Below, piece after piece: positions 1 through 63,199 of a stretch of DNA of 64,000 bases. Under the pieces are notes generated by a model. It was not told the origin of the DNA. It did no database searches and was given only the letters and a program-made list of their open reading frames with translations. Numbering within the stretch: position 1 is the first letter of the stretch; each line of letters begins with the position of its first letter. The stretch is from a virus (lineage: Duplodnaviria > Caudoviricetes), in the IMG/VR virus record IMGVR_UViG_2905639403_000004, positions 9,376 through 73,375 of that record; one strand, given 5' to 3'. Made by a program: the position numbers and the translations under genes.

Positions 1-2325
1 CTGTTTCTGCTGCTTTTTTTGAGCTGCATCAGTTGACTTGTTAATGCCATCCCACCATTTGACTACATTGTTAGTCATTTGACGAGCATCCCAGCCAAGA
101 CCACCTAGCCAACTATTAGCTGGCTTTTTCTTAGCATTCCAGCCATCAGTAAACTTCTTAGCGGCATCGCCGGCCCATTTACCGACTGTTTTGCCAATTG
201 TCGCACCAACCGCTGCGCCTAAGGGACCACCAAAGAAAGCACCGATGCCACCACCAATCAGCGTCCCGGAAGATTCACCAACGGCAGAAAACTTTTGGCC
301 AACAGTACCTCCTTTAGAAAAGGCCTTTGTTAAATCCTTAATATCTGAAATAGCATCATAGGCAATTGTGACAGTCGCCATGCCCTTGCCAAGTGCACTG
401 CTATTAAGCTTGCTGAAGTTTGACAGGATTGATTGAGCTAGTTTAGTATCACCCAGCGCTTTCAGACCGCTGTACACATGACCCAATCCTGCTGCAAATT
501 CCAGTGCTTTTTTTGTCATCCAAAGCCCTGCAATCACTTTGACGGTAGTTTGAATACCAGATTTATTTTTGACAATATCATCCAGCACATCATGGATAGC
601 TTTTAGCGGGTCTTTCATCGTCTTTGCATTGGAACCACCGACATTTAGCCAACCAGCGATGTCTTTGATTGCGGTTTTAAACAAGGACCAGACTTCTCCA
701 CCAGCAACTTTGGCAATGTCCCACATATCTCCGGCAATACCAGTAACATCTTTTTTGTGTGCGGAAACATAGTCCAGAACGTTCTTGGCCCAATTAGCAA
801 TAGTTGCCAGCCCTTTACCTAGTGTAGTAGCGGCACTTTGAACAACAGATGATGTCAAAATCCCAGCAAGTGATTGCATGCCACTATTCTTAACATTAAG
901 CAATGGTGCTGCCATCTTAGCCTTGATTGTTGTCCAACTACCGGACAGCTGCGCAATGGCGCCTTCACTAGTTTTTCCAAATTGGTCAAATGTGCTCTTG
1001 CTTGTTGTCCCAACTTTGTAAACTAAGTTCATGAAGTCGTCAGACTTGATTTTCCCGTCAGCAACCATTTTGGCAAATGACTCCTGACTGACTCCAGCAG
1101 CTTTGGCTAATTGTGCGCCTAATGTAGGAGCCTGCTTTTCAAGTTTGGCAAGGTTTGTTGTTGTTAAATTACCTGAAGCAACGACACGTGTCATCGCTTT
1201 AGACAATGAATCCATGCCGTCTCCGCCTTTGTGCGAAGCCGTAGCAATGCTGGCAATACCAGCACTAATGACTAGAGTTTTATCAGTGACACCATGTGTC
1301 ATGGTATCAACGGTGGTTTGCATTTTGTTAACTTCGCCACCGGTTGCACCAGTCTCACTGCGCAAATATGACATTTGATCGGAAAGAATCTGGATATCAT
1401 TGGCTGACTTACCCATGTTCTCCCATGTCATTTTCAGCTTTTCTCCGGCCTCGTTAAGTTCTAGCCCAGACTTTACCGTGTCAGTAATGCTTGAGCTTAG
1501 ACGTTGCCAGCCGCTCGTAATGGCATTGGTGATTAAGCCACCCTCAACAATTTTGTGAAGCAAACCCGGTGTCTTTTCGGCTTGCTTGTTTGTTCCCGAT
1601 ATAGCTTCCTTAACTCTGTTGAAAACAGATGGATTAGCCTTCTCCATTTCAGCTTGCAAACCGGTCATAGAAGACTTAGCCTTTGCTAAACTGGTAGCCG
1701 TTTCATCAACACGCGTCTTCTGTGTACGCCATGCGTCTGAATCCTTGCCACTAGCACTGGCAATCTTATCCAACTCAGCAGACTGTTTAGACAGCTGCTC
1801 ATTAAGATTGGTAATGGAGGACTTATAGCCTTCCATCTTGGCCTTGTTGGCTTCTTGCTGATTGCCTTCAGCCTCTAAGCGAGTCACATAAGCTTGGTTG
1901 GCACGTGCAGCAGCTGTGTATTCTTGCTGTAATCCTGCCAATCCAGACTTTTGATAGTCCATTGCTTGCTTGGCACGATCTTGCTGAGCTTGCATACTAG
2001 CAAGCTGCTTAGTTGCACCATCAATTTGTTGCTGATACTTTAAAAACTGTTGAGCAACATCGGCGGTATTGCCCTTCAACTCAGCTTGTTTGGCTTTTAG
2101 GGCGTCAATCTTAGACTGCTGTGATTCAATAGACTTACCCAAGCCGTCATACTTGGCTTGAGCAGCTCCAACTGCATCACCAGCGGATTTCATCTCCGCC
2201 TCTTGAGCTTTCCAAGCATTTTGGCTAGAACGAACAACCGCCGTTAATGATTTGACGGATTCGCTTGCCGACAATAGATCAAGGGCAATCTTGGTGCTCA
2301 TTGTTGCGTTAATTTGTTGTGCCAC
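1..2325 (-). CDS. Tail tape measure protein (3' part outside window)
   Basis: Long Ala/Gly-rich minus-strand frame from GTG at 2325, directly after the tail chaperone genes; absent from ORF track because it runs off the edge. Confidence 0.85.
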   Translation of the reverse strand, partial: MAQQINATMSTKIALDLLSASESVKSLTAVVRSSQNAWKAQEAEMKSAGDAVGAAQAKYDGLGKSIESQQSKIDALKAKQAELKGNTADVAQQFLKYQQQIDGATKQLASMQAQQDRAKQAMDYQKSGLAGLQQEYTAAARANQAYVTRLEAEGNQQEANKAKMEGYKSSITNLNEQLSKQSAELDKIASASGKDSDAWRTQKTRVDETATSLAKAKSSMTGLQAEMEKANPSVFNRVKEAISGTNKQAEKTPGLLHKIVEGGLITNAITSGWQRLSSSITDTVKSGLELNEAGEKLKMTWENMGKSANDIQILSDQMSYLRSETGATGGEVNKMQTTVDTMTHGVTDKTLVISAGIASIATASHKGGDGMDSLSKAMTRVVASGNLTTTNLAKLEKQAPTLGAQLAKAAGVSQESFAKMVADGKIKSDDFMNLVYKVGTTSKSTFDQFGKTSEGAIAQLSGSWTTIKAKMAAPLLNVKNSGMQSLAGILTSSVVQSAATTLGKGLATIANWAKNVLDYVSAHKKDVTGIAGDMWDIAKVAGGEVWSLFKTAIKDIAGWLNVGGSNAKTMKDPLKAIHDVLDDIVKNKSGIQTTVKVIAGLWMTKKALEFAAGLGHVYSGLKALGDTKLAQSILSNFSKLNSSALGKGMATVTIAYDAISDIKDLTKAFSKGGTVGQKFSAVGESSGTLIGGGIGAFFGGPLGAAVGATIGKTVGKWAGDAAKKFTDGWNAKKKPANSWLGGLGWDARQMTNNVVKWWDGINKSTDAAQKKQQKQ

Positions 2326-2330
2326 TTTAA

Positions 2331-2561
2331 TCACCCTTTCTCTTGGTATTGCTGCCACATGATTGCCGGATCAATTGGCCGGTCTTTCTTATCCTTGGCA
2401 GACATCATTTCAAACATTTCGAAATAATCAGCTTCATCAAAATCATTTAGTGACCAGTGAAAGAAAACGACTGCTTGTTTTTTAGACCATCTAAAATCTT
2501 GAAGCTGATTTTCAAGTTCATAAACTTTGACGGCTGGATTAATCTTTACTTTTGCTGGCAT
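2331..2561 (-). CDS. Tail assembly chaperone, downstream (gpT-like) part
   Basis: Overlaps end of upstream chaperone and precedes tape measure. Confidence 0.65.
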   Translation of the reverse strand: MPAKVKINPAVKVYELENQLQDFRWSKKQAVVFFHWSLNDFDEADYFEMFEMMSAKDKKDRPIDPAIMWQQYQEKG

Positions 2562-2889
2562 CCTGCTTCTTGGCAGCTAAGTCAATATCCTCATCACTCA
2601 TGCCCATCATGCGTTCAAAAGTGTAATTAACTGCCTGAATAGTGTCGGCAAATTCTAGGTCTCCAAGTTTTTCAATTTCTTGCTTGTTCAGGGCTAAAAC
2701 CGTGGTCAAGAAGTCGATTGAGTCATGCAGCATATCGCGCTGCATCTTAATAATTTCTACCGGTTCCATATCCGCAACATCGTCTGCCTTGGCCATCAGT
2801 AACTGTAAGTCGTACATCTTTTCCATGTTCCGATTGGTTGTCTTTACCTCATGTACACGATTGCTAAGCTGACTAACTTTGATCTTCAT
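2539..2889 (-). CDS. Tail assembly chaperone (gpG-like)
   Basis: Between major tail and tape measure; start MKIKVSQ preceded by AAGGA. Confidence 0.75.
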   Translation of the reverse strand: MKIKVSQLSNRVHEVKTTNRNMEKMYDLQLLMAKADDVADMEPVEIIKMQRDMLHDSIDFLTTVLALNKQEIEKLGDLEFADTIQAVNYTFERMMGMSDEDIDLAAKKQDASKSKD

Positions 2890-3051
2890 TGTTAATACCA
2901 TCCTTTGTATTTGATAAGGTCGCTGTGGTGAATCGGACACCACCAAGTTCACCAGAAAGCGACTTTTGAGCATAAAAAATAGCGCACGTTTGTGAGCCAT
3001 TCATCAGTTGTTGCTATGAAATTGCGTCAGATTACGTCTGTCAGCACCGGC

Positions 3052-3663
3052 TTATTTGCCTAATGATGAGGGTGTCAATACGTATCCGCCGAACACTTCT
3101 TTGTACATGTTGGCTTTATCAAACTTGCTATCAAGATCGCTATAAATCTTGTACGGCTGATTATTAAAGGCCATAGTAGAAAGTGCTGTATAAGTCAAAG
3201 CGTCATCTACACGTTGTTCTGCTGCCGCATCAGTCTGAATGTTAGCTGCGGTTTCGGTCATGATGCCATCACCAAATCCATAGTAAACAAAGTGCGCCCG
3301 ATCAATGGTTTGGGTGGTAATAAGCAAGGCCACATGAGCCTTCAAATTCTCATCGGTCCAACCGCCTTTTTTATCACTGACAAACCCTTTAATTTGCTGT
3401 TTGACTTGGTAATTCAAGTTGTTAATATCCAAAGCCACTGTTGGTTCTGAAGTACCAACCATAACGTCTTGGACAGCATTGTTGCCATAACTCTTAGCAA
3501 TCGTGCCTGCTAAGTTAGTAATGTTGGCAGTTTTAGTACCTAAATCTTTGTGATCGACAGTATAGATACCGTCTGTGCTTAGTCCTGTATCAGCGCCAGA
3601 AATTAACTTTTGCTGTGCATCAACCAAAGCTAGCTGGATTTGATATAAACCTACTGTTGCCAT
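3052..3663 (-). CDS. Major tail protein
   Basis: 203 aa, MATVGL start, GNN motif, synteny. Confidence 0.85.
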   Translation of the reverse strand: MATVGLYQIQLALVDAQQKLISGADTGLSTDGIYTVDHKDLGTKTANITNLAGTIAKSYGNNAVQDVMVGTSEPTVALDINNLNYQVKQQIKGFVSDKKGGWTDENLKAHVALLITTQTIDRAHFVYYGFGDGIMTETAANIQTDAAAEQRVDDALTYTALSTMAFNNQPYKIYSDLDSKFDKANMYKEVFGGYVLTPSSLGK

Positions 3664-3676
3664 TTAAATCGTCTCC

Positions 3677-4048
3677 TTAAATGTTTTTTGTTCTGCTGAA
3701 ATAAAATGTGTTGAAAAGCTGTGATGTGTCTGGGTCAAATGTTCGTTGCCTGACGGCCGCTACCTGCCAATGCTGATGAGTAAAAGCCTTCATCATGGCT
3801 ATCTCAATGATTTCGGGATCAGAATCAAGCAATTGCGAGTACCAAATCTGTACTTCTACTTCCTGATTTAATGCCCAGAAATCATTGTTACCATGGGCGG
3901 TAGGATCATCAGCAGCATCAGTAATCAGCACGACTGTTTTGTTCAGATTATCGACTAATTCTTTCGGCAAGTTATTGCCTTTAACTGCATTGATATTGGC
4001 AATCCCGGCTTGTCTAAGCATCGTTACCGCATCATCTACGGCACTCAT
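3677..4048 (-). CDS. Tail terminator/completion protein (DUF806-like)
   Basis: Synteny; EVQIWY motif. Confidence 0.7.
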   Translation of the reverse strand: MSAVDDAVTMLRQAGIANINAVKGNNLPKELVDNLNKTVVLITDAADDPTAHGNNDFWALNQEVEVQIWYSQLLDSDPEIIEIAMMKAFTHQHWQVAAVRQRTFDPDTSQLFNTFYFSRTKNI

Positions 4049-4464
4049 TTATCCCCACCACCATTCGCTTTGGCAATCATTGCCTGATATTTCTCGGCTT
4101 CAGCGGCAAATACAGCGTCTTTGGCATCGTCACGGGCATTATCAACAAAGTGATCGCCGCGAATATACTTGGTGCCATCATTCAAGAAGCGGGCAATGTG
4201 GGCTTTATTGTGGAACCCAACCGTTGAACTTCCATTATGGTCACCGTCAATATCTCCCGCAGCACTCCTGATGTCATCGCTCAAATGTCCATACTTACCG
4301 CCGTCTCCCTTAGTATTTGGGTGCTTCTCTTTGGTGGTCTCTGCTAGATTCTCGGCGTAAACATCAGCACCAGCCTTGGTAATCTTCTCTTGGTCAGATA
4401 CAGAAAGCTGTGCGGCCTTTGATACTTGCTTAAGCCATTGGCCAAGTGCCTCATCCATGTCCAC
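4045..4464 (-). CDS. HK97 gp10-like neck protein
   Basis: ARFLNDGTK motif, synteny. Confidence 0.8.
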   Translation of the reverse strand: MDMDEALGQWLKQVSKAAQLSVSDQEKITKAGADVYAENLAETTKEKHPNTKGDGGKYGHLSDDIRSAAGDIDGDHNGSSTVGFHNKAHIARFLNDGTKYIRGDHFVDNARDDAKDAVFAAEAEKYQAMIAKANGGGDK

Positions 4465-4466
4465 GG

Positions 4467-4808
4467 TTATGCCCCCTTAGTTGTTTTGACTAGGGTCAGA
4501 TAGTCATAGCGAATAGCATCGTTTGAATCGTCTGGACTAATGTCTGAAATGTCATACACGATGCAATCTATTCTTGCTTGCTGTTGGCTTGCGTTACGTA
4601 CATCGTGCCTGACAATAATCGTGATTGAATTATCCAAACGTGTGCCCACAAGCGTGTACTGCTGGGTGAGTGTCCGCGTCTGCTGCTTGAAATGCAGACT
4701 ATAATTCGGAACAAAGCTAGTGATATTAATGCCAGCACCAGTCGTGTGTGATTTTGGAGAGCCGAGATCAACCTTGCGGCTGAAATCGGCTACTTTAAAT
4801 TTAGCCAT
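4467..4808 (-). CDS. Head closure/head-tail adaptor
   Basis: Synteny, size; likely start MAKFKV. Confidence 0.75.
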   Translation of the reverse strand: MAKFKVADFSRKVDLGSPKSHTTGAGINITSFVPNYSLHFKQQTRTLTQQYTLVGTRLDNSITIIVRHDVRNASQQQARIDCIVYDISDISPDDSNDAIRYDYLTLVKTTKGA

Positions 4809-5151
4809 CAGTCTCACCAGCCTTTGCTGCTTGATCACGCTGAATCTTCCAACGAATGCTGTTGATCATGTAAGCATAGCTGGGTGGATAGGCCTTGCTT
4901 TGATCAGATAGTGTGCCTCGTGAGTAATACATGAAGTCCACCAGCACCCGAACCGCCTGATTGAACAGAGGGTACTTTCGATAAACTTCAACTGCAATCG
5001 TGTCATCGACAGCATTCATCACTGCGCTTTCCGCCGTGTTAATCAAGCTGCTAAGAATCTGCGCATCACCATCAGTGTCCAGATTCAGGTAGGATTGCAT
5101 ATCATCAGCGGTAACTCTAACGGTATCGGTCGTTGCATCGGCCATATTCAA
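4801..5151 (-). CDS. Head-tail connector (gp6-like)
   Basis: YLNLD...LINTAE...YYSR pattern after capsid. Confidence 0.8.
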   Translation of the reverse strand: MNMADATTDTVRVTADDMQSYLNLDTDGDAQILSSLINTAESAVMNAVDDTIAVEVYRKYPLFNQAVRVLVDFMYYSRGTLSDQSKAYPPSYAYMINSIRWKIQRDQAAKAGETDG

Positions 5152-5216
5152 TCCTCCTTTAGTGGCCGCCCGCCTTATCGGCGAATTGTTTATTTCTTAG
5201 GCGACTAATAATCGTA

Positions 5217-6395
5217 TTACTTACCAAGACCGGAACCAGATACAGCATCTGTATTGGTCACAAAATATCCGGCATTGCTATCGGCCTGTTTGACGCCAAA
5301 TCGGAACGCGGCACCAAGATATTGGCCCCAAATTTTATCGTCAATCCATGCAAGTGTTACCTGTTGACGATCCGTAAACAGGACACCACGCTTCAGATCA
5401 CCAACGAATGCTTTTTGATCACCTGCAAGAGAGCCGAGAAGAGTATCACCAACAACATATACGGGAACACCAAGAACCGTGCCCTTTGCAGTTCCGTCAG
5501 TAATAGAATCGGAGGCGTCGTGAAGCAAGTAGCGGCCGTTCTTATCCTTTAAAGTGTCAAGTGTGTTGAACAAAGACTGAGTAACCACAAGAGCACGGCT
5601 ATATGCTGGATCAAGATCAACGTTCAGGATGTGCTTAAGGCTATCTACAAGAGTATCAGTGGTTGTTGCCTTGGCTTTGAATGACTGTAATACAGGCGCA
5701 ATCATCGCGTTGTAAGTATTAACAGACTTCTCCTTAATAGATTGACCAACAAGCGCAGTCAAATCGACTTGCGAATCAGCGATGGCTTCTTCTGAAAGCG
5801 GGATGGCCCCGCGATACGTGGCCACCGACCAATCCACTTGAGTGAAATTCGGTTCAGCAAGTGCCGGATTCTCAGCCAGCTCTGCCACACTGGAAAAACG
5901 ATCAGTCGCCCGCTTCAAAATCGGGTATGTGCCCTTAGGAGTAGTAACCGGCGTCTTGGTAACCAAGGTGGACAAATCCACAACCGAATTTACCTCTGCG
6001 GTAGGGTCATAAATAATTTCTTCCGGAATCAGCACACCAGCTTCGGTCGAAGTGACGTGACTGGCTACGTTTTCAATCACCTTGCCATGGCTATGGATGA
6101 AGTCGTTGATAGCTTTCTTCTTGGCGTCAATTGGCTTTTTCTTTAAGTCTGTTCCATTTGGATTAGCCTTGTCTTTTGGCTTGTCAGAGTTAGAATCATC
6201 CTTCTTTTCAGCTTCAAGGGCTTTAATCTGATCGTTAATAGCGTCCCGACGTGCCTTGGCAGCGGTCAAGTCGTCCTTGATCTTTTGAAAATCATCCACA
6301 GATGCATTTTCATCTTGTAATTTTGCGTTGAGCTGCGCGTTGAGGTCAGCACACTTGGCACTGACTTCATTAAAAAGCGTTTGTAATTTGTCCAT
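5217..6395 (-). CDS. Major capsid protein (HK97 fold)
   Basis: Coiled-coil delta domain, GVLIPEE, LKDKNGRYL motifs. Confidence 0.93.
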   Translation of the reverse strand: MDKLQTLFNEVSAKCADLNAQLNAKLQDENASVDDFQKIKDDLTAAKARRDAINDQIKALEAEKKDDSNSDKPKDKANPNGTDLKKKPIDAKKKAINDFIHSHGKVIENVASHVTSTEAGVLIPEEIIYDPTAEVNSVVDLSTLVTKTPVTTPKGTYPILKRATDRFSSVAELAENPALAEPNFTQVDWSVATYRGAIPLSEEAIADSQVDLTALVGQSIKEKSVNTYNAMIAPVLQSFKAKATTTDTLVDSLKHILNVDLDPAYSRALVVTQSLFNTLDTLKDKNGRYLLHDASDSITDGTAKGTVLGVPVYVVGDTLLGSLAGDQKAFVGDLKRGVLFTDRQQVTLAWIDDKIWGQYLGAAFRFGVKQADSNAGYFVTNTDAVSGSGLGK

Positions 6396-7090
6396 TATTG
6401 GACCTCCTTTTTGTCATAAAAAATAGCCAGCTTCTTGTTTAGCAGATCATTCTGCTTTGGAAGTTGACTACGTAGCTTTTCATTTTCATCTTTCAGATTC
6501 TTAATTAGTTGAACTGCGTGATGTGGAATAATCGGACCCATAGCGTTTACAATTGGCGTATCGAAGTCTAGCTTTTCATCTGCCAATCCTAGTTCGACAG
6601 CTTGATCAGCGTCTAGCCAAGTTTCTTTATCCATCAATGCTAAAAAGTCATCGGCAGATTTCCCAGTCTTTGCAGAGTACAGGCTTGCGATTGCGCTATC
6701 GGTAGTTTGCAGCATTCCAGAAGCGGCATCCATCTCGTGCGAATTACCACTAGCATCACTTGATGCTCGATGAATCATCATCTTGGCGCCTGGCGCCATC
6801 TGAACCTTATTAGCCCCCATGGCAACAATTGTTGCAGCAGAATACGCGTTTGACATCACCTTCGCTGTCACATTTCCTTGATAGCTACGCAAAGCATTGC
6901 AAATTTCCGTTGCTGGATCTACCTCGCCACCATTTGATGTAATTTCAAGTGTGACATCGGATCCGTCCGCTGGCAGAGACCCAATCACATCAGCCGGCGA
7001 AACAACTGCTTGTCCAAACCAATCACGATAAATCGGAGCATCATCGTCATTAGTAATTGCACCATTAATTTTAATTGTCACCTTCATCAC
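6395..7090 (-). CDS. ClpP-like prohead protease
   Basis: ITSNGG, AYSAAT, MMIH, ETWL motifs. Confidence 0.92.
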   Translation of the reverse strand: MMKVTIKINGAITNDDDAPIYRDWFGQAVVSPADVIGSLPADGSDVTLEITSNGGEVDPATEICNALRSYQGNVTAKVMSNAYSAATIVAMGANKVQMAPGAKMMIHRASSDASGNSHEMDAASGMLQTTDSAIASLYSAKTGKSADDFLALMDKETWLDADQAVELGLADEKLDFDTPIVNAMGPIIPHHAVQLIKNLKDENEKLRSQLPKQNDLLNKKLAIFYDKKEVQ

Positions 7091-8228
7091 CTCCCTTCAC
7101 TTGTGTAGTAAGTGGCTCGAACTCAGGCAAGTTATTGGGGAAAAATTTCGATCCCTTGAGCATGGATTGAGCCTGATCTACTCCCACTAAACCAGCCTTT
7201 GCAAGATTTGATAACTGGTTAATCAGTATTGAGTCGTCAACATCCAACATGTTTTTGATATCTAGCTCAAGGTCCGGTGCGTTCATCTTCAAACGCAGCT
7301 CATCCACGATTGGATTAACATATGAGTTTAAGTTCGCCAGATATGTTGCCTTGATCTGGTCAATGTTTGAGTGTTGGCTTTCGGTCGATGTTCCGCCGCC
7401 CAAAATATCGCTAGGCACACCAAAGGCCTTGGAGATTTGATCAGCAGAGTATGCTGAATTATCAGCCAAAGCTTTAAAAACGTCAGTCTTCATTTCAAGC
7501 TGGGTGTAATCGAACCCATCCGGTAAAACCATCAAGCGACCGGAGTTATCACCGGTATTTGCCTTCTCAAACTCTTCACGAGCCGCTTCTAAGTCCTTGC
7601 CATCGCTTAAATAGTTGCTTATTTTTAGCTGACCGGCTGGATTGATCTGATTTTCCATAGCGCTCATGTTGCTCTTTGAGGCTTTATCGTCCAAATTAAG
7701 GGCGTTTTGTAAGCTTTCTAAAGGCGATCGGCCAATCAAATATCGATATTGTGGGTCTGGCATGAGCCTAAAATGCAGCATTTGGTCTTGCCTAAGCACC
7801 ATTTGAGGACGATCATTGCTCTCCAAAACCGTATAAACAATGCCCATATTGCCTGGTAAATAGTTAATTTGGACGTCAGAGTTAGGAATATGCTCCAGAT
7901 TCTGCCCAACTAACGGGATATAGTCGTTGCCTGACAAACAAAGTTGCATCAACGCACCTTGCCAGAAAGAAAACCGGCCTATCAAGCTGCTAGGGCTCTC
8001 AAGTCGGTTCAATGTTGCAGTATTTTCAGTTTTGAAGTGTGCCGAGGCAACATCGCTAGCAATACGGTTAATCACACTATAAACATTAGTGTTTTGCAAA
8101 GCGGACAGCGCCGAAACATAAGACAGCTGCATGCCGCCAACCGTGGTCGTGAAAAAAGCATAATTGCTCGGATAAACCATGTTTTTGGCCTTGCGTTTGC
8201 TGAAATTTTTAGGGGTTAGAAGTCCCAT
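7071..8228 (-). CDS. Portal protein
   Basis: HK97-type portal motifs (GRSPL, ISKAFGVP). Confidence 0.92.
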   Translation of the reverse strand: MGLLTPKNFSKRKAKNMVYPSNYAFFTTTVGGMQLSYVSALSALQNTNVYSVINRIASDVASAHFKTENTATLNRLESPSSLIGRFSFWQGALMQLCLSGNDYIPLVGQNLEHIPNSDVQINYLPGNMGIVYTVLESNDRPQMVLRQDQMLHFRLMPDPQYRYLIGRSPLESLQNALNLDDKASKSNMSAMENQINPAGQLKISNYLSDGKDLEAAREEFEKANTGDNSGRLMVLPDGFDYTQLEMKTDVFKALADNSAYSADQISKAFGVPSDILGGGTSTESQHSNIDQIKATYLANLNSYVNPIVDELRLKMNAPDLELDIKNMLDVDDSILINQLSNLAKAGLVGVDQAQSMLKGSKFFPNNLPEFEPLTTQVKGGDEGDN

Positions 8229-11555: not shown

Positions 11556-12050
11556 CTAAATCCTCCCACGATATCGCGCTTGCTTGTGATGATAGTCATT
11601 CAGCGCTTTGTCTAGCTTTGCAATGAACGACTTGCTGAATTTTAGATCATCAGATAGCGTGACGCCTTTGATCTTGGTAGACATTCCAGCCTTGATATCT
11701 TTTAACTGATCCAAGATTGGATGAGTGTCTATATGAATCGGAGTGTTGATATTTTCGATTGGTTCGTCAACCGGCTTGAATTTCTTGTCGAAGTCTTCCT
11801 GACTCATTGCATGCACCACATATCCACACAGGTCACTGTAGTCAGCCACAAGCATATCGCCTTGTTTCACAAAATGCTGATCATTTCCTTCTCCAAATGT
11901 AGTAACGACATGGTTGTCATAGCGAACGTTAACTCTAATTGGGATACCGTTCTCTTTAAACTCGTTGCTGACGAACTTACCTACGTCTTCGCAATCTTCC
12001 GGCACCTTGATTGCAATGTATTCCTTTGGCCGTTTCACTACTTTAAGCAT
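11556..12050 (-). CDS. Hypothetical phage protein
   Basis: ORF with AGGAGG RBS. Confidence 0.65.
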   Translation of the reverse strand: MLKVVKRPKEYIAIKVPEDCEDVGKFVSNEFKENGIPIRVNVRYDNHVVTTFGEGNDQHFVKQGDMLVADYSDLCGYVVHAMSQEDFDKKFKPVDEPIENINTPIHIDTHPILDQLKDIKAGMSTKIKGVTLSDDLKFSKSFIAKLDKALNDYHHKQARYRGRI

Positions 12051-12062
12051 GCATAATTCCTC

Positions 12063-12388
12063 CTAAGATAATATGATTGTCGAATAGGAACCGTTACCGT
12101 CAATATTTAGACTAGTAACATCCCATCCTGATTTATTTAGCAAACTGATTACTTCATTAACGACTGCTGGATTGTACTTGGCAACGCTAATTGAGATTGG
12201 GGATGTAGTATTGATTCCTTGATTAATGGCATCGTTCACATCAGCAATCAGACTGTCTTTGTATTTCTTAGTTGCATTGGCACGAGTTGGTAGGGATCCT
12301 TCCATTTTTGGTAGCACTGGTGCTGGTGGAGGCAACTGACGGTGAGAAAATTGCCTACTTTGGCTTTTAGCATTATTTGAGAGCATAT
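12063..12388 (-). CDS. Hypothetical phage protein
   Basis: ORF; GGAGG RBS before MLSNN, though an upstream start at 12485 is possible. Confidence 0.55.
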
Positions 12389-12488
12389 GTTTCCCTCCGT
12401 GTATTGTTTCCCTTGATAGCTCTTCAATGATTTTTTGCTCCGTGCGGCTAACGTAGCCATAGCTAACACGTTTCATACCTGACATGAC

Positions 12489-13019
12489 TTACACCGCCAA
12501 CTCGAAGGAAAAACCTCCGTGATATTTGCGCTTGCCACGAAGACACTTAGATACAGCGCTTCGGTCTAGTCCAAGAAGTTCCGCGGCTTTTCTGGCACTT
12601 TCAAAGAAATAGCGATGTCCCGAGCCACTTACCGCATAGATTGGACGCTCGTTTGCCTTTGCCGCGCGCTCGGTGCGAGTACCGTAATTGGTATTATATA
12701 ATGCTGTACACCACTCAAGATTTTCAACTAAGTTGTTGCCTTTGTCCTCGTCCATGTGATTGACTTCTGGCAAGTTGTCGGGATTGTCTAAAAATGCTGC
12801 GGCTACCAAGCGATGAATGAACACTTGCTTTATGCTTCTGTCCCAATATAAATTGACCTTGAGGTACCCGTTTCTATTTGGAAAGCTGGCGATCATCTTC
12901 CCTTTTAAGCGGCGTCCTTGTGCGTCTTCGCGATCAAGGCTTCTTACTCTGCCCATATTGCTAACTTGGTATAGTCCCTCAAAGCCTTCAATATCTTTCC
13001 AAATTTCAGTTGAGTTCAT
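12489..13019 (-). CDS. NUMOD4-HNH homing endonuclease
   Basis: EIWKDI...YQVSNMGRVRS, HRLVA, VNH..NN..NLEW. Confidence 0.92.
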   Translation of the reverse strand: MNSTEIWKDIEGFEGLYQVSNMGRVRSLDREDAQGRRLKGKMIASFPNRNGYLKVNLYWDRSIKQVFIHRLVAAAFLDNPDNLPEVNHMDEDKGNNLVENLEWCTALYNTNYGTRTERAAKANERPIYAVSGSGHRYFFESARKAAELLGLDRSAVSKCLRGKRKYHGGFSFELAV

Positions 13020-14223
13020 AAGTACACCTCAATCTTTCGTCGTCATAAACGAACGCATACAGCAAATGCTTGCCCGTGGTGAAGCCATTCTTAATCTCAT
13101 AGGGATCATTTGGTTTCGCAGTTCCAAGCTGGCGCCACATAATGCCACGATCATCTTTAAACCGCTCGCTATGATAGTGGCCTGAGTGAAGTTCGTATGT
13201 TTTTGCCATATTGAATATCTTTTTGTACTCAAATGGAAAAAGCCCTGTCAGCTTGTCCTTGGCTACATCTCCATGGGCGAGCATAATGCCAACATGCCCT
13301 AGCAAGTATGCACAGCGCCAGTCGGTTGCCAAATTACTGTCATTGAGATCAACGTGGACTTGTGGATAGCGATCTATCAGCGCATAAAGAAAAGCGTATT
13401 CGAGATCACCTGAATGGTTACCGAACACGCTCTTGATTGAGACGCGATTGCTATATTCAATTGCCAGCGGAATAATCTGATCAAACAACTTCACAGCATC
13501 ATGGAATGCCTGACGCATGTTTGCGTGATCTAGTTGCGTTCCTCTAACCGTTTGTGTTACATGAATCTGATCACTATGGAATAGATCTCCCAATTGCTCG
13601 ATCACAATTTCGTTGTAGCCGTCCATGATGATCTCTCTAAGTTGACTCACCATGTCTTTTAGATCGGCGAATGTTGTCCAGCCAAAATGCAGGTCAGGCA
13701 ATGGGATGACTAAGTTGCGATCGCCCGATTTCTTCATGCCGTAATTGACCGGAATGATTTTGCCGTTGAATGCTTCAGCCATTTCACTTATCGATAAGCC
13801 TTGTTTCGGCTTTACGCGAATATGAATGCTGTACTGCGGAACTGTGCCATTTTCGGTACTATGCTGCTCATACACTTTGTAGTCGCCTAAGACCATCTCG
13901 AACTTATCAGGATCGTATCCACACAACTCCATCAAAGTCCGTGGGTCTTTATTTGGCTCATGCTTGAGTCTCATTAAGGCCGTGACTGTTTGACTACCAT
14001 CAGCATTAAGAGCTACTTTTCTATCAACGGGTTGGCTCTTTCTATCTGTTTTCGCTGAATCGTATTCATTCTTCAATGGCTTTTGGAACTCGATACCAAG
14101 CCGTCTTGCTTTGCCTTGAAGCGCATCATAGCTAATCCCGAGTTTGTCGGCTGTCTCGCGTCTGGTAAAGCCTTCAGAGGCGAGCTTCCTAATGTCACCA
14201 ATCTGTTCATCTGTCCATTGCAT
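13006..14223 (-). CDS. HTH plus calcineurin-like metallophosphoesterase
   Basis: N-terminal HTH; DLH, GD, GNH, HG, GHYH motifs. Confidence 0.85.
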   Translation of the reverse strand: MQWTDEQIGDIRKLASEGFTRRETADKLGISYDALQGKARRLGIEFQKPLKNEYDSAKTDRKSQPVDRKVALNADGSQTVTALMRLKHEPNKDPRTLMELCGYDPDKFEMVLGDYKVYEQHSTENGTVPQYSIHIRVKPKQGLSISEMAEAFNGKIIPVNYGMKKSGDRNLVIPLPDLHFGWTTFADLKDMVSQLREIIMDGYNEIVIEQLGDLFHSDQIHVTQTVRGTQLDHANMRQAFHDAVKLFDQIIPLAIEYSNRVSIKSVFGNHSGDLEYAFLYALIDRYPQVHVDLNDSNLATDWRCAYLLGHVGIMLAHGDVAKDKLTGLFPFEYKKIFNMAKTYELHSGHYHSERFKDDRGIMWRQLGTAKPNDPYEIKNGFTTGKHLLYAFVYDDERLRCTYELN

Positions 14224-14246
14224 CTACTCGCCTCCTGAAATATAAT
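14218..14246 (+). promoter_or_regulatory. Sigma70 promoter of sRNA cassette 1
   Basis: TTGCAT-17bp-TATAAT; conserved at 62373-62401. Confidence 0.8.
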
Positions 14247-14251
14247 AATTG

Positions 14252-14326
14252 AGGCACATGCAATCATGTGCTGCTCTTTTCATTTTTATTCCTCAGGCTC
14301 TCGGACTCGACCCCGAGAGCTTTTTT
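14252..14326 (+). ncRNA. Putative sRNA P1-1
   Basis: Promoter, 5' hairpin GCACATG/CATGTGC, CTTTTCATTTTTATTCCTC segment, terminator GCTCTCGG..CCGAGAGC-T6. Confidence 0.65.
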
Positions 14327-14327
14327 G

Positions 14328-14356
14328 TTGCTTAAAAGATTTCAATAAGCTAAAAT
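14328..14356 (+). promoter_or_regulatory. Sigma70 promoter of sRNA cassette 2
   Basis: TTGCTT-17bp-TAAAAT; boxes identical at 62494-62522 while spacer varies. Confidence 0.75.
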
Positions 14357-14361
14357 TAAAT

Positions 14362-14440
14362 TGTTCCCAATAAATACTCATTTTCACTCCTCGGTACTAC
14401 CCCACTCCTTAGCTCTCGGCCCCCAACCGAGGGCTTTTTT
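14362..14440 (+). ncRNA. Putative sRNA P1-2
   Basis: TACTCATTTTCACTCCTC segment; terminator GCTCTCGG..CCGAGGGC-T6. Confidence 0.65.
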
Positions 14441-14475
14441 AGTATCCTTATACACAGGATGTGCTATTATGTAGC

Positions 14476-14578
14476 CATGAGCAGTGGCCTTTCTCCTCCA
14501 AGTCAATCGCTGCTACTCACACAAGTATTTCGTTTTTTCATCCTTTTGGCCCTTGGACTGGTCTCTGAGGGCTTTTTT
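14476..14578 (+). ncRNA. Putative sRNA P1-3
   Basis: Extended -10 TGcTATTAT at 14462-14470; TTTCTCCTCC and CGTTTTTTCATCC segments; terminator GCCCTTGG..CTGAGGGC-T6. Confidence 0.65.
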
Positions 14579-14585
14579 GTTGCAT

Positions 14586-14617
14586 AAAAATAGCACCTCA
14601 CCGGTTGGCGGAGTGCT
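14586..14617 (-). terminator. Intrinsic terminator after moron gene
   Basis: AGCAC..GTGCT hairpin with T-tract on minus strand; similar copy at ~63206-63237. Confidence 0.5.
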
Positions 14618-14750
14618 CGTGTAAATAAAAAGACGCCGTGGCGTCTTGATATCTCACCGATTTGTCTTTCGTTTGATGTCGCTTGATCCGAGATTACAAA
14701 CAGAAAAGCACAAACTAAATATTCCTAGAAAAAGACTAAAAAGAATCATT

Positions 14751-15422
14751 TTATTTCCCTCCATATACGTTCAAATCGCCACTGACTCTTTCATTCAAAT
14801 CCTTGCCGTTCTTTTCTTGGAATTTTTGATTGAACTTTAAGTATTTTGTGGCTAGATCATTCCTCTTCTGCAAAGCATTTCTGTCGTCAAGAAGAACCCG
14901 TCTAACTAAAGCCAATGAATTCATGAAGTCTTCCCGGTCTCCTGCAGTTAGATAGAAAGACTGCTTGTACTTTTTATTTTCAAACAGCTCAGTTACTTTG
15001 GCATTTAATCGATAAATGACATCAGCTAAGTCCTTGCGATAGACTTGGTAATTCATTGAATTGCGTTGAGGCAAACGAGTTATTTGAATATCTTCAATTA
15101 CTTGCAAATTTTGTTTCAAGCTATATATTTGATAGTCAATTTGATTTTTTGTAACGGCTATGTGATCTGACTCTGCAACTTTTCCAGTCAAAATATCAAT
15201 GTCAGTTTCGGCTAGTTTAGAAGAGTTTACCAACGCTTGATTTGACCTTTGCATGTATTCTTCATTTGCTGTCCTATAACTATTCCACGTATTCAAACTG
15301 ATCGCAACCGAAACTATTGATATTATTATTGGAATAATCTTGTCCCACTTTGTCTTCATTACGTGGAATATTCCTAAGACAAAATCACCAATTCGCTCAT
15401 ACAGTGGCAGCTTCACTTTCAA
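14751..15422 (-). CDS. AT-rich membrane-anchored moron protein
   Basis: One N-terminal TM (IIPIIISIVSVAISL), GAGGTG RBS. Confidence 0.7.
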   Translation of the reverse strand: MKVKLPLYERIGDFVLGIFHVMKTKWDKIIPIIISIVSVAISLNTWNSYRTANEEYMQRSNQALVNSSKLAETDIDILTGKVAESDHIAVTKNQIDYQIYSLKQNLQVIEDIQITRLPQRNSMNYQVYRKDLADVIYRLNAKVTELFENKKYKQSFYLTAGDREDFMNSLALVRRVLLDDRNALQKRNDLATKYLKFNQKFQEKNGKDLNERVSGDLNVYGGK

Positions 15423-15429
15423 TCACCTC

Positions 15430-15685
15430 AAAAAAATAGTACTCCAGCGTGAACTGGAATACTACATTGAGGTGATATCTGTGCTTCATATGTCTGCTGC
15501 TCGCTCTCCCAGTGTCAGATAGGGTCATCGCAAGCTGTGTCCGGTCGCTAAACTGGACAATGTGGCATGCGGGAATCGAACCCACCTGACTATCTCAGCC
15601 AGTCCTCATTGCCACGCCTTGCCACAGCTTTATCATCACTGAGGCTCGGAGGAAAAACGCGGTGTCTCAGGTTTCTCACCTTTGG
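15430..15685 (-). ncRNA. Structured late leader RNA containing a D-armless tRNA-like element (15562-15615)
   Basis: GTGGCA/TGCCAC stem, T arm GTGGG-TTCGATT-CCCGC, further hairpins, terminator TAGTATTCCAG..CTGGAGTACTA-T. Confidence 0.5.
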
Positions 15686-15738
15686 CACAATACCATCATA
15701 TGACGGAAAAACAGTTGAAAGGTCTCACAAAGGTCTCA
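15683..15738 (-). promoter_or_regulatory. ArpU-dependent late promoter with direct repeats
   Basis: TGAGACCTTT x2 upstream of TATGAT -10; core matches 63541-63565. Confidence 0.6.
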
Positions 15739-16162
15739 TCTCGATTTCAACCAATGGACAAATCTCAGCGAATGCGATTAGCGCTTCTCGTTTTGTTCGA
15801 TAATACTGGGCTTTTGATAAAAACAGCTTGTCCATTATTTGCTGGTCACTATATCGTTTGGTTAAGTAAGAACTTGTTAATATAAGCCGATGATTCGCTG
15901 AATCCAGAGATTCGATAGCACCTTCACAGCACGCTATATAGTACAGCTCGTCAGCGTGCGATACGAGCTTTTCCTCGGCTTTGTTGCCATAGCTAGGTGA
16001 CTTGGGCATGCCGTCCATCACGGGGCTTCTGAGCGCTATTTTGGTGCGTTGAGCGAGCCGCTTGTGATGCCAGTAGTTCCCCAAGACCTCTTTGGCGTTT
16101 TCAATTGTTTTGTCATGATCAATTGGGCTAAAATATCTCGTTGCTCGCACCACTGCGTCCAC
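15725..16162 (-). CDS. ArpU-family late transcriptional activator
   Basis: SPVMDGMPK, YYRTKREALIAFAE. Confidence 0.9.
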   Translation of the reverse strand: MDAVVRATRYFSPIDHDKTIENAKEVLGNYWHHKRLAQRTKIALRSPVMDGMPKSPSYGNKAEEKLVSHADELYYIACCEGAIESLDSANHRLILTSSYLTKRYSDQQIMDKLFLSKAQYYRTKREALIAFAEICPLVEIEMRPL

Positions 16163-16234
16163 TCCTTATGGTTTGATTTGGTTGGGTTTGTAGGATAAGC
16201 GTGCCTTCGTGGTGCGCTTTTGTTATACTGTTTG

Positions 16235-16324
16235 TGAAGATGGTGGCTTAAGTTCCATTATTCAAAAGCCATGTATTGCATAAAAGTCCCTGTCTTCCAC
16301 CCGTCGCTAATCCGGCGGTTTTTT
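16235..16324 (+). ncRNA. Putative sRNA P1-A
   Basis: TGtTATACT at 16221-16229, paired ends, terminator CCGTCG-CTAATC-CGGCGG-T6. Confidence 0.55.
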
Positions 16325-16337
16325 GTTATACTGTCTT

Positions 16338-16421
16338 CGGAGGCCCACTCCAAAATGACTATTACCCTGGTGCAATTCACACACTGGCCTCCGGCGCGTC
16401 CCTAATCAGGCGCGCTTTTTT
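16338..16421 (+). ncRNA. Putative sRNA P1-B
   Basis: TGtTATACT at 16324-16332, CGGAGGCC/GGCCTCCG stem, terminator GCGCG..CTAATC..CGCGC-T6. Confidence 0.55.
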
Positions 16422-16647
16422 ATTTGCTTTCAGGAGGCCGAATGAGCTCCCATGGATCAATCCCAGCTCCATCTGCGATTTTATCTAAGGTGTTAAGTGA
16501 AACACTGCCCTTCCCAGAGATTGCATATTGAAGCGTGTTGATGGGTATTCCGATCTCTTTTGCATATTTTGCTTGTGTCATGTTCAGATCGTATATATTC
16601 TTCCTAAGGTTTTCGGACAATGCTCGTTTGCTGTCCAATCTGCTCAT
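16420..16647 (-). CDS. XRE-family HTH protein
   Basis: MTQAKYAKEIGI..SLNTLDKIA. Confidence 0.8.
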   Translation of the reverse strand: MSRLDSKRALSENLRKNIYDLNMTQAKYAKEIGIPINTLQYAISGKGSVSLNTLDKIADGAGIDPWELIRPPESK

Positions 16648-16718
16648 CTCCTAATGCTTGTTTTTCCAGTTAGCCCACATCCACATTGCAGCACCTGAGA
16701 TTAGCAGCATGACGGCAA

Positions 16719-17006
16719 TCATTGCTTTGCTTCCAGCCTGCGTCCGCACATCGGACAATAATTAATCACGATTGGATCATCGACCTCAGCATTATCAAAG
16801 CCAACAGCTTCGCATGTGTGTATTGCTGCACCGTTTATTTTTTCAGGCTCGATTCTATCCCATTCATTTCCACCAGTCATACCGATTCGAAAAAAGTTGC
16901 CAAGTTCTGATTCAATGAGCTTATGTGGTTCATGACAATATGGACAGTTTTTCTGGTTCTCCGTAAAGGAGGTCGGATTCGACCCCTTTTCCACTTTTTC
17001 AGTCAT
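16719..17006 (-). CDS. Zinc-binding phage protein
   Basis: CPYC ... CPMCGR. Confidence 0.7.
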   Translation of the reverse strand: MTEKVEKGSNPTSFTENQKNCPYCHEPHKLIESELGNFFRIGMTGGNEWDRIEPEKINGAAIHTCEAVGFDNAEVDDPIVINYCPMCGRRLEAKQ

Positions 17007-62276: not shown

Positions 62277-62378
62277 TCATATTGTTAATATAACTAGCTT
62301 GTCGGCCGTCTCTCGTCTGGTAAAGCCTTCAGAGGCGAGCTTCCTAATGCCACTGATTTGTTCATCTGTCCATTGCAT
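62277..62378 (-). pseudogene. 33-codon remnant of the HTH-metallophosphoesterase gene
   Basis: MQWTDEQISGIRKLASEGFTRRETADKL nearly identical to start of 13006-14223, then stop. Confidence 0.8.
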
Positions 62379-62404
62379 CTACTCGCCTCCTAAAATATAA
62401 TGTC

Positions 62405-62492
62405 TGTGAGCAGTTTAGCGATTCTGCTCATGTTCTCCAAAAAGAACTTCCCGAGTTCTTAAGCCCTCGGATTCGTCCCCGAGAGCTTTTTT
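62405..62492 (+). ncRNA. Putative sRNA P2-1
   Basis: TTGCAT-17-TATAAT; hairpin TGAGCAG/CTGCTCA; CATGTTCTCC; same terminator family; body unrelated to P1-1. Confidence 0.6.
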
Positions 62493-62527
62493 GTTGCTTA
62501 AAAAATTTCGATGAGTTAAAATTAAAT

Positions 62528-62606
62528 TGTTCCCAACAGATACTCATTTTCACTCCTCGGTAATACCCTATCTTTAAGCTCTCGGCCCCCAACCGAGGGC
62601 TTTTTT
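62528..62606 (+). ncRNA. Putative sRNA P2-2 (homologue of P1-2)
   Basis: TTGCTT-17-TAAAAT; identical ATACTCATTTTCACTCCTCGGTA and terminator. Confidence 0.65.
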
Positions 62607-62641
62607 AGTATCCTTATACAAGGAATGTGCTATTATGTATA

Positions 62642-62745
62642 GCGTGAGCAGTGGCTTTTCTCCTCCAAGTCAATCGCTACTGTTCACACATATGTTTCGT
62701 TTTTTCATCCTTTTGGCCCTTGGACTGGTCTCTGAGGGCTTTTTT
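62642..62745 (+). ncRNA. Putative sRNA P2-3 (homologue of P1-3)
   Basis: TGcTATTAT; conserved TTTCTCCTCCAAGTCAATCGCT and TTTCGTTTTTTCATCC; identical terminator. Confidence 0.65.
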
Positions 62746-62799
62746 GTTGCACTTTGTTCAAGCTTATATGATAATTGATGTTAAAAGGAGGTAATATCT

Positions 62800-63018
62800 A
62801 TGAGTTTAGATGGTAAAGTCGACAGCACCAAGGACAAGATCTCCGGTAAAGCAAAAGAAGTTGAAGGTAAAGTAACGGGTGATAAGGCTCGCGAAACACA
62901 GGGCAAAGCAGAAGGCATACTTGGTAAAGCCAAGGAAAAGCTTGATGATGCCAAAGATGCTGTTAAAGACACAGTAGATGATGTTAAAAACAAGCTCAGC
63001 ACAGATAAAAAAGACTAA
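62800..63018 (+). CDS. csbD: CsbD-family stress protein (moron)
   Basis: KDKISGKAKEVEGKVTGD..QGKAE; AAGGAGG RBS; own promoter and terminator. Confidence 0.9.
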   Translation: MSLDGKVDSTKDKISGKAKEVEGKVTGDKARETQGKAEGILGKAKEKLDDAKDAVKDTVDDVKNKLSTDKKD

Positions 63019-63122
63019 TTAACTGGCCGGCAAAGTGTCGGCTTTTTTGTCGCTTTTTTAAACCTGTACAAATCCGGTACAAGAGCTTTACGTATTTGAT
63101 AAACTCATCTGCTATACTGATC

Positions 63123-63199
63123 GTGCAAGGCAAGCCACCCTTGCAATCACATTTACTTCCCTCATGTATGCCTTCAGCCTGGGTAGCTGGAGGTTTTTT
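63123..63199 (+). ncRNA. Putative sRNA P2-4
   Basis: TGcTATACT at 63110-63118; hairpin TGCAAGG/CCTTGCA; CATTTACTTCCCTC; terminator GCCTTCAGC..GCTGGAGGT-T. Confidence 0.6.

Follow-up and report, generated by a model that had tools for sequence, protein, structure and literature searches.

Introduction

The small RNAs (sRNAs) LhrC1-5 of Listeria are tandem siblings, each with a promoter and a terminator, whose CU-rich loop and linker motifs anneal to the Shine-Dalgarno (SD) regions of surface-protein mRNAs. Streptococcal csRNAs are 51-202 nt long and occur as two to six genes per genome, each with its own promoter and terminator; they carry unpaired anti-SD and anti-AUG stretches (CAU in 53 of 61), for which a block of translation initiation was proposed; their defining element is the CiaR box NTTAAG-N5-TTTAAG, located ten bases upstream of the -10 element, while CiaRH was not found in Lactobacillus, according to the part of the report that we draw on (Marx et al. 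2010, PMC3091779). AgvB and AsxR of enterohaemorrhagic Escherichia coli (EHEC) are described, in the portion of their report used here, as Hfq-dependent prophage anti-sRNAs at the PR' moron site that mimic mRNA target sites (Tree et al. 2014, PMC4104026), and the consulted part of a study of L. casei BL23 gives sLCB577.2- as intergenic and confirmed by northern blotting (Mickute et al. 2021, PMC8220740). In enterobacteria, the rewiring of host RNA networks by prophage sRNAs is well documented; in lactic acid bacteria, such sRNAs are barely known. Here we analyse a tandem array of three sRNA cassettes of a Lacticaseibacillus prophage, at 14218-14578 (+) in a 64,000-nt stretch of Caudoviricetes DNA (positions 9,376 to 73,375 of IMG/VR record IMGVR_UViG_2905639403_000004; hereafter the window). 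Several cassettes display the seed of a genus-wide host sRNA family, and the phage therefore probably copies a host control circuit.

Three abutting units with promoter, body and terminator

The array lies on the strand opposite to every nearby phage gene, in an intergenic gap of 527 nt (14224-14750) that is flanked by two (-) phage genes. Its parts are as follows.

14219-14326 (+): unit 1
14218-14246 (+): unit 1 promoter, TTGCAT 14218-14223, 17 nt, TATAAT 14241-14246; identical -35/-10 ahead of U1a and U1b bodies in the alignment
14251-14326 (+): sRNA U1a, ~76 nt; 5' hairpin 14253-14272; terminator hairpin 14297-14320, then U6
14327-14440 (+): unit 2
14328-14356 (+): unit 2 promoter, TTGCTT 14328-14333, 17 nt, TAAAAT 14351-14356; hexamers conserved above the spacer in 29 distinct sequences
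14362-14440 (+): sRNA U2, ~79 nt; ~49 nt unpaired; terminator 14412-14434, loop CCCCCAA, then U6
14441-14578 (+): unit 3
14462-14470 (+): unit 3 extended -10 promoter TGcTATTAT; kept as TGCTA[AT]TAT in 28 sequences
14477-14578 (+): sRNA U3, ~102 nt; stem 14478-14488/14509-14519; terminator 14549-14572, then U6

The sequence is exactly as the initial annotation had described it: the three promoter-body-terminator units abut, the TTG of the unit 2 -35 box TTGCTT comes from the T-tract-GTTGC joint at the end of unit 1, and each of the three bodies has its CU-rich stretch, unpaired in the predicted fold. In U1a, the seed GCUCUUUUCAUUUUUAUUCCUC (14273-14294) is unpaired in a fold with a minimum free energy of -27.7 (z -4.63), and so is the U2 seed ACUCAUUUUCACUCCUC (14376-14392); the U3 loop CUUUCUCCUCCAAGUCAAUC (14489-14508) is displayed by a stem, and a second CU-rich stretch of U3 lies at 14528-14547. 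The unit 1 -35 box TTGCAT overlaps the opposite-strand start codon of a 405-aa phage gene.

A terminator scan of 12000-17000 yielded 11 sites versus 4.4 ± 1.9 in shuffles, with three (+) sites followed by T6 inside the array. The consensus promoter scan of the same interval stayed at chance (10 promoter-like sites versus 9.8 ± 3.3 expected) and did not list the unit promoters, since in the -35 boxes only three of six positions agree with TTGACA; the promoter case therefore rests on conservation and on the starts of RNA contigs. A search with the Rfam 15 covariance models gave no match in 14200-14600, even at E ≤ 10.

The units yield abundant short RNAs

Expression data came from four public RNA runs of three studies, all kept as contigs and picked since they contain this stretch. 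X3 and X14 are size-fractionated RNA libraries of one organism (a related strain), and X15 and X4 are ordinary RNA-seq. Contig word depth in X3 and X14, respectively, was 181092 and 125627 over 14204-14304, 156742 and 119800 over 14305-14405, 16939 and 56439 over 14406-14506, and 49276 and 6315 over 14507-14607. In sharp contrast, the adjoining gene (13800-14203) stood at ~10 in X3 and 0-8 in X14. Depth over 14709-15415 was 0 in both, where the missing contig cover (X3, X14 and X4) is not evidence of silence. The expectation of self-contained (+) small-RNA genes thus agrees with RNA that is abundant in X3 and X14, in which the phage genes next to the units are close to silent.

Moreover, short contigs fit the units: they begin right behind the -10 boxes and finish in the T tracts (14251-14318 in X3; 14257-14324, 14265-14324 twice and 14370-14439 in X14). 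One loose end in X14 reads AGTTCTACAGTCCGACGATC plus 10 nt and is joined before 14528. We take AGTTCTACAGTCCGACGATC to be the end of the Illumina small-RNA 5' adapter, in which case the unit 3 RNA would be of (+) sense. Unit 3 is also prominent in the ordinary library X15 (2041-7484).

Some features of these data pull the other way. Contigs give neither strand nor level, and those at 14206-14279 and 14296-14389 span unit borders. In X15, units 1 and 2 have depths of 410 and 208 versus 569-1104 on the left flank, and in X4 depth is 66-227 versus 66-77 on the flank, so that enrichment is weak or absent for units 1-2. Nevertheless, the combined evidence strongly supports three independent sigma-70-type genes for intrinsically terminated RNAs of ~76, 79 and 102 nt, and we are highly confident that the units are real small-RNA morons.

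The bodies carry anti-SD stretches and conserved RNA elements

The test for anti-SD content covered ten body families, eight from arrays and two from a second cassette group in the window (16225-16421). CCTC or CTCC (CCUC or CUCC in RNA) occurs in nine of the ten, versus 4.2 ± 1.5 in shuffles (P ~0.002), which is above the expectation from composition and bears out the anti-ribosome-binding-site segments first noticed in the bodies. The complement reads SD-N4-10-ATG in four of the ten families, versus 0.9 expected (P ~0.005). In the consensus folds, the CU-rich stretch lies in a loop (U3, D) or on an open strand (U1a, U2). It is thus strongly supported that each RNA exposes a CU-rich anti-SD stretch, often together with an anti-AUG at the right spacing.

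Conservation follows the same elements. Across the U2 alignment (29 distinct sequences, an unbiased set), mean column identity is 0.948 for the -35 box, 0.948 for the -10 box, 0.953 for the seed, which is the best-conserved segment of the body, and 0.952 for the terminator, with lower values for the spacer (0.885) and the linker (0.793). The U3 consensus fold has 21 pairs, of which pair 8-41 changes from CG to UA in 2 of 20 sequences; pair 15-33 of family D is UA in six and CG in six of 13 sequences; and in the U2 terminator, pairs 53-78 and 56-75 are changed on both sides, each in one of 28 sequences.

The SD-ATG complements might alternatively act on the (-) strand, starting tiny open reading frames (ORFs) or stabilising the late-mRNA leader by ribosome binding, with the hairpins serving as RNA-stability elements. 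Their presence in four of ten families and open frames of 19-33 aa in the window are in line with such a signal. Yet the peptides vary in length and frame: ORFs that start at the seed complement encode 25 distinct peptides of 3-55 aa for U2 (63 arrays) and six of 5-22 aa, with changes of frame, for U1a (44 arrays). The codon-level conservation that the initial annotation had set against its own RNA reading is therefore absent on the (-) strand. Furthermore, the U5 complement is an ATG directly followed by TGA, T tracts follow the hairpins on the (+) strand only, the contig ends fit (+) units, and the presumed adapter sequence gives (+) sense. We thus consider a (-)-strand signal highly improbable. 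The cassettes do not look like antisense RNAs of type I toxin-antitoxin pairs either, as the opposite-strand peptides are short, non-hydrophobic and variable in frame and length, and no conserved toxin ORF was found among them.

Cassettes are shuffled among related phages at one site

BLAST against phage records returned 44 records, all from Lacticaseibacillus or Lactobacillus casei-group phages, and among the matches listed 19 rows reach beyond the 5' end of the 405-aa gene. IMG/VR was scanned twice with exact patterns, which returned 57 and 48 stretches; only four loci are common to both lists. With the gene start as left anchor and a (-) terminator as right anchor, 90 arrays of 231-1353 nt were extracted, 63 of them distinct. 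This sample is biased to U1a and U3, because both supplied the search patterns; the other families are unbiased.

The 90 arrays have 33 architectures, composed of at least nine unrelated body families and a CsbD-like protein moron, which supports the modular nature proposed for the cassettes and shows them shuffled between phages. Two cassettes are present in 24 arrays, three in 41, four in 14, five in eight and six in two; phage A2 alone has none and carries an ordinary (-) ORF at the site. Among the 89 cassette-holding arrays, U2 is present in 54, U3 in 53, U1a in 44, D in 38, E in 34, U1b in 26, U5 in 13, P in three and U1c in two, and the CsbD-like coding sequence (CDS) in ten. The window array has fewer cassettes than those of phages C3.1 and R10.1, and prophage PLE3 of L. 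casei BL23 has U1a then E at the array site. Genomes of four of 37 Lacticaseibacillus species contain the array, and a fifth has remnants.

In 89 of the 90 arrays, the cassettes sit at one place and in one orientation, opposite to the phage genes. Common to all cassettes are a similar terminator and a T-tract-(G)TTGC joint, and the terminator/T-tract/GTTGC joint is likely the crossover point of recombination. These observations strongly support a fixed moron site, with the upstream genes' terminators on one side and the GcrA-like (405-aa) gene on the other.

The U1a seed leads to a genus-wide chromosomal sRNA family

Host genes had been put forward as targets of the seeds. In three casei-group genomes, what the complement of the U1a seed matches best is instead an sRNA-like gene that has the same seed in the same sense, a family that the initial annotation had missed. 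The locus has a promoter upstream and an intrinsic terminator ~70 nt downstream. BLAST with it gave one to six matches in each of 37 Lacticaseibacillus species (37/37, one genome each), and 26 distinct copies align over ~150 nt of RNA plus a conserved promoter. Two examples are:

L190:1449-1614 (+): host sRNA
L169:1420-1585 (-): host sRNA

The genes beside the copies are ordinary chromosomal ones (NAD-binding, GH3, ECF sigma, GNAT), and tandem pairs occur in L157 and L193. From 5' to 3', the RNA is made of a 5' hairpin, a CCC-rich stretch, a seed hairpin, a second hairpin and a terminator. RNAalifold on 20 copies gave 25 pairs, of which 19 have double changes that keep the pairing. Hardly any variation occurs in the seed hairpin UUUUACU-CCUCCAA-AGUAAAA; the invariant seed is CAUUUUUACUCCUCC, with the pattern CAUUUU(U)(A/C)(C/U)UCCUC(C). 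In 24 of 26 copies, the promoter holds a direct repeat [GT]TCA[CT]A-N5-TTCA[ACT]A (GTCACA-N5-TTCACA) with an 11-bp period, the second half of which is located at -35. We take this layout to be that of an OmpR-type response-regulator box, resembling the PhoP box. In Rfam 15 the family has no match above threshold; ar14 (RF02344) and CcsR1 (RF02791) came up below it, at 27.8-35.7 bits versus a gathering score of 58.8. Judged by sequence, this putative sRNA family is thus previously uncatalogued and genus-wide, with a candidate regulator box in its promoter.

Several cassettes resemble these RNAs. In local alignments to the host copies against 100 shuffles, z was 5.9 for U1a, 5.2 for U2, 6.5 for E and 3.0 for U3. 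U1a aligns in the seed (19/21), E over 52 nt that comprise the seed and the next hairpin, and the U3 loop at 20/23, resembling CUCCUCCAAGUAAAAAUCG. U2 aligns in the linker and the terminator, with linker UACCCCA..UUAG and terminator loop CCCCCAA common to both, and host copies in L132, L137 and L139 match the 15-nt core of its seed at every position. The host seed pattern is present in U1a, U2 and U3 and absent from U1b, U5, D, P, V2 and V3. Searched against 193 kb of host loci, a covariance model built from U2 (R1) produced 24 matches with E ≤ 1, mostly host 3' modules, with a best E-value of 4.4e-4; these values are rough, as the database was partly terminator-selected. It is strongly supported that U1a, U2, U3 and E carry the host seed in RNAs that are shorter than those of the host, and U2 and E may also carry the host 3' module. 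The cassette RNAs are 60-105 nt long, with an open seed and one or no hairpin before the terminator, versus ~150 nt and a seed inside a hairpin for the host. The direct repeat of the host promoters is found in 0 of the 90 phage arrays, versus 24 of 26 host copies.

Sharing a seed with a host regulator could also mean that the RNAs are decoys or sponges, which would titrate a host factor or RNA (an sRNA partner or a protein that binds the CU seed) rather than repress mRNAs. Their very high abundance and the identity of the seed with that of the host family fit such a role, for which the EHEC prophage anti-sRNAs at a moron site are a precedent in the consulted part of PMC4104026. However, those anti-sRNAs mimic mRNA target sites, whereas the cassettes bear a regulator-type anti-SD sequence, and seed-complement searches of host genomes gave only same-sense copies and no complementary host sRNA. 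A decoy role is therefore improbable.

Target searches and weighing of host mimicry

Two groups of results weigh against the idea that the cassettes mimic the host family and block translation starts in trans. The first concerns targets. When five sRNA bodies were paired by RNAduplex with 121 SD-bearing translation-initiation regions (TIRs) of the 73-kb contig, top-5 means were -24.6 to -34.6 kcal/mol, with no enrichment over 30 shuffles; this test is crude and ignores accessibility, and U3 was at most 1.4 sd beyond the shuffles. Seed complements with up to three mismatches were found in 144 phage loci (1.0 Mb) only in arrays, plus scattered sites with two or three mismatches, most of them for the short U3b and U2 seeds. 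In four casei-group genomes, the U1a 22-mer and the U3-loop 19-mer met only arrays, host sRNA copies and one site with three mismatches. The U1a 18-mer with up to three mismatches had 16-22 matches per genome in four host genomes versus 2-16 for the reversed control; three to six of them per genome are sRNA or array copies, and the remaining excess over the control is modest. The target enrichment over shuffled controls that the initial annotation had asked for did not appear for the TIRs of the phage contig, and the host matches are chance-like.

The second group concerns relatedness. Six of the ten families show no host similarity in the local alignments (z -0.9 for U1b, 0.6 for U5, 1.7 for D, 0.4 for P, 1.6 for V2 and 0.6 for V3). 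An nhmmer profile of the full-length host RNA matched no cassette at E ≤ 10, and the relationship between cassettes and host is limited to segments of 15-50 nt. U5, D and P have no chromosomal look-alikes among the 37 genomes, where their matches, in 2 and 3 of 37, are all prophage arrays. Covariation within the phage families is thin, at one or two double changes per family, and the seed itself may be convergent, since an ideal start site of Firmicutes has a complement much like it.

The U2 complement 17-mer with up to two mismatches has matches in 17 of 37 genomes, and the exact ones are prophage copies. GGGGAGTGACAATGAGT at the start of an oppD-like gene recurs in four genomes that lack the array; it was considered as a U2 target and rejected. 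Weak recurrent sites (-19 to -26 kcal/mol) are unremarkable and are not claimed as targets; they lie at starts of what, named by eye, we take to be LCP-family-like, DeoC-like and NAD-binding proteins and a lipoprotein.

The negative target searches, the fast shuffling and the truncated look of the cassettes would suit selfish or neutral moron debris, in other words captured fragments of a host sRNA gene and terminators that are transcribed and functionless. Seeds, hexamers and terminators are nevertheless conserved above the linkers across the 29 distinct U2 sequences, 89 of 90 arrays retain at least two cassettes (phage A2 being the exception), and the anti-SD enrichment extends to families that are unrelated to the host sRNA. 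Functionless debris is for these reasons decidedly improbable.

Genes at the array borders, a second array and the cis alternative

The window is contained in a 73-kb record that was treated as viral and that holds two prophage-like regions. The array has the following borders and neighbours.

13006-14223 (-): 405-aa phage gene with GcrA-like N-terminus (PF07750, 33.4 bits), left border of the array
14592-14647 (-): two terminator-like hairpins that close the upstream phage genes, conserved right border; the terminator scan lists 14647-14630
14751-15422 (-): 223-aa gene without Pfam match

Two HNH-type endonuclease genes (one HNH/NUMOD) and then the large terminase gene lie further down, past the 405-aa gene. 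Further up from the array are a DUF1492 (ArpU-like) gene and a gene of XRE type. The array had been called antisense to the late operon. It is indeed on the strand opposite to the 405-aa, HNH and terminase genes, but it does not overlap their coding sequence and lies upstream of it.

The other prophage of the window has a second array, with the order U1b-U2-U3-CsbD-U5 and a homologue of the right-border hairpin at 63237-63214 (-).

62374-63199 (+): second array copy
62374-62492 (+): U1b
62493-62606 (+): U2
62607-62745 (+): U3
62800-63018 (+): CsbD-like CDS, 72-aa stress protein (PF05532 CsbD, 47.9 bits)
63049-63199 (+): U5

The CsbD-like gene has its own promoter and terminator and the orientation of the sRNAs, and is found inside 10 of 89 arrays. 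Beside this second array, only the first ~27 codons of the GcrA-like gene are left (62296-62376), the remainder being replaced by unrelated DNA; locus L123, from another species, has the same 27-codon remnant. Ahead of the promoter, U5 and its homologues have a direct repeat GTACAA-N5-GTACAA with an 11-bp period (63063-63085 (+)), which may be a regulator site distinct from that of the host family.

A second (+) group of promoter, body and terminator lies between the XRE-type and ArpU-like genes (16163-16421). Its terminators, at 16197-16219, 16301-16318 and 16393-16416, are each directly followed by TGTTATACT (extended -10). RNA contigs, which are without strand, cover 16129-16212 (X14, depth 576) and 16195-16392 (X15, depth 1719), and the first unit would be antisense to the start region of the arpU-like gene. 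The bodies V2 and V3 of this group have no similarity to the host sRNA family in the local alignment. A tRNA-like T-arm/acceptor element is located at 15561-15626 (-), with 23.4 bits to the tRNA-Sec model versus a gathering score of 47; ARAGORN reports no tRNA there. Abundant short contigs overlap the element or lie beside it (15495-15587 in X3, depth 4976; 15561-15710 in X14, depth 273).

This setting invites a reading in cis, in which several strong convergent promoters, and RNAs fully complementary to whatever (-) read-through arises, would form an antisense and transcriptional-interference barrier that silences the GcrA-like, HNH and terminase genes, with the bodies as mere spacers. It would explain why place and orientation opposite to the phage genes are kept in 89 of 90 arrays (the exception, A2, has no cassette); the unit 1 promoter sits on TIR DNA of the 405-aa gene, and the second (+) cassette group abuts the arpU-like gene start (contig 16129-16212). 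On the other hand, no part of the bodies is conserved as well as the seeds, which are common to a chromosomal sRNA family, a CsbD-like protein moron occupies the same site, and two (-) terminators already stand ahead of the array. The barrier also appears dispensable, because phage A2 has an ordinary (-) ORF there instead. On its own, the cis reading is insufficient, because seed conservation, the host link and the CsbD moron are left unexplained, and we regard it as unlikely. Since every cassette points towards the late genes, the array probably also has a secondary effect in cis that damps leaky late transcription.

Discussion

The most likely account is that at least four cassette families are constitutive, short look-alikes of a regulated host sRNA family that act by csRNA-like occlusion in trans. 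We lean slightly towards the fuller form of this reading, in which the phage mimics, in shortened and constitutive form, a csRNA-like family of host sRNAs, and the cassettes block translation starts in trans. The phage RNAs would act like the host sRNAs and the streptococcal csRNAs, pairing with the SD and the start codon and blocking initiation. Being made constitutively, they would hold the lysogen in the state in which the host sRNAs are 'on'. The benefit could be a change of the envelope or surface, exclusion of other phages, or stress fitness that matches the CsbD moron.

More tentatively, we can picture, in temperate phages of the L. casei group, a recombining array of stripped-down mimics of a response-regulator-controlled, csRNA-like host regulon. 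A seed without its control element might lock the translation of the regulon mRNAs in the signal-on state, aiding the lysogen or excluding rivals, while the joint would let phages swap seeds; this remains a doubtful, if possible, extension. The locked mRNAs would probably be those of envelope, transport or stress proteins.

The idea raised here is that phages take over a host regulator's seed but not its control. The locus is compact and tractable, with three RNAs below 110 nt and natural variants that hold different cassettes. We know of no Hfq-type paradigms in lactic acid bacteria. The L. casei group includes probiotic and dairy strains, and prophage-dependent changes of surface or transport would bear on strain behaviour and phage resistance.

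A literature search turned up no account of the host family and none that treats the phage arrays as a system, although the supplements of PMC8220740 may list both. The initial claim that no such system had been described needs qualification: csRNAs are a close functional analogue, and the catalogue of sRNAs from L. casei BL23 probably includes the RNAs described here. sLCB577.1-, sLCB577.2- and sLCB577.3- are probably the same kind of prophage RNA, and the part of PMC8220740 on the BL23 sRNAs that we used gives them no function, array concept or link to a host family.

The host family itself is like the cassettes in its seed, its intrinsic terminator and its tandem copies in some genomes. The alphaproteobacterial ar14 and CcsR1 'CCUCCUCCC' sRNAs are like the host family in that hairpin loops expose an anti-SD, but they belong to an unrelated phylum and stay below threshold, and their Rfam models have no match on the phage cassettes. 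LhrC1-5 of Listeria differ from the cassettes in being homologous chromosomal siblings under a two-component system and not phage-borne. The csRNAs are alike in design, but they are chromosomal, neither phage-borne nor heterologous arrays, and their CiaR box (TTAAGN5TTTAAG, up to one mismatch) has no match in the whole window. The EHEC anti-sRNAs, as presented in the part of Tree et al. considered here, come close in other respects: they are short, abundant sRNAs of prophages whose moron site, close to the late regulator, is conserved, and they are convergent with the phage genes; within related groups of them the 3' part is conserved and the 5' part varies; and they rewire a core-genome sRNA network. 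Whereas the cassettes stand up to six in a row in one orientation, the anti-sRNAs come in convergent pairs, and in lambdoid phages of Gram-negative bacteria. Prophage sRNA morons and sibling anti-TIR sRNAs are thus already known kinds, and the link to a mimicked host family is the new, testable element of this locus.

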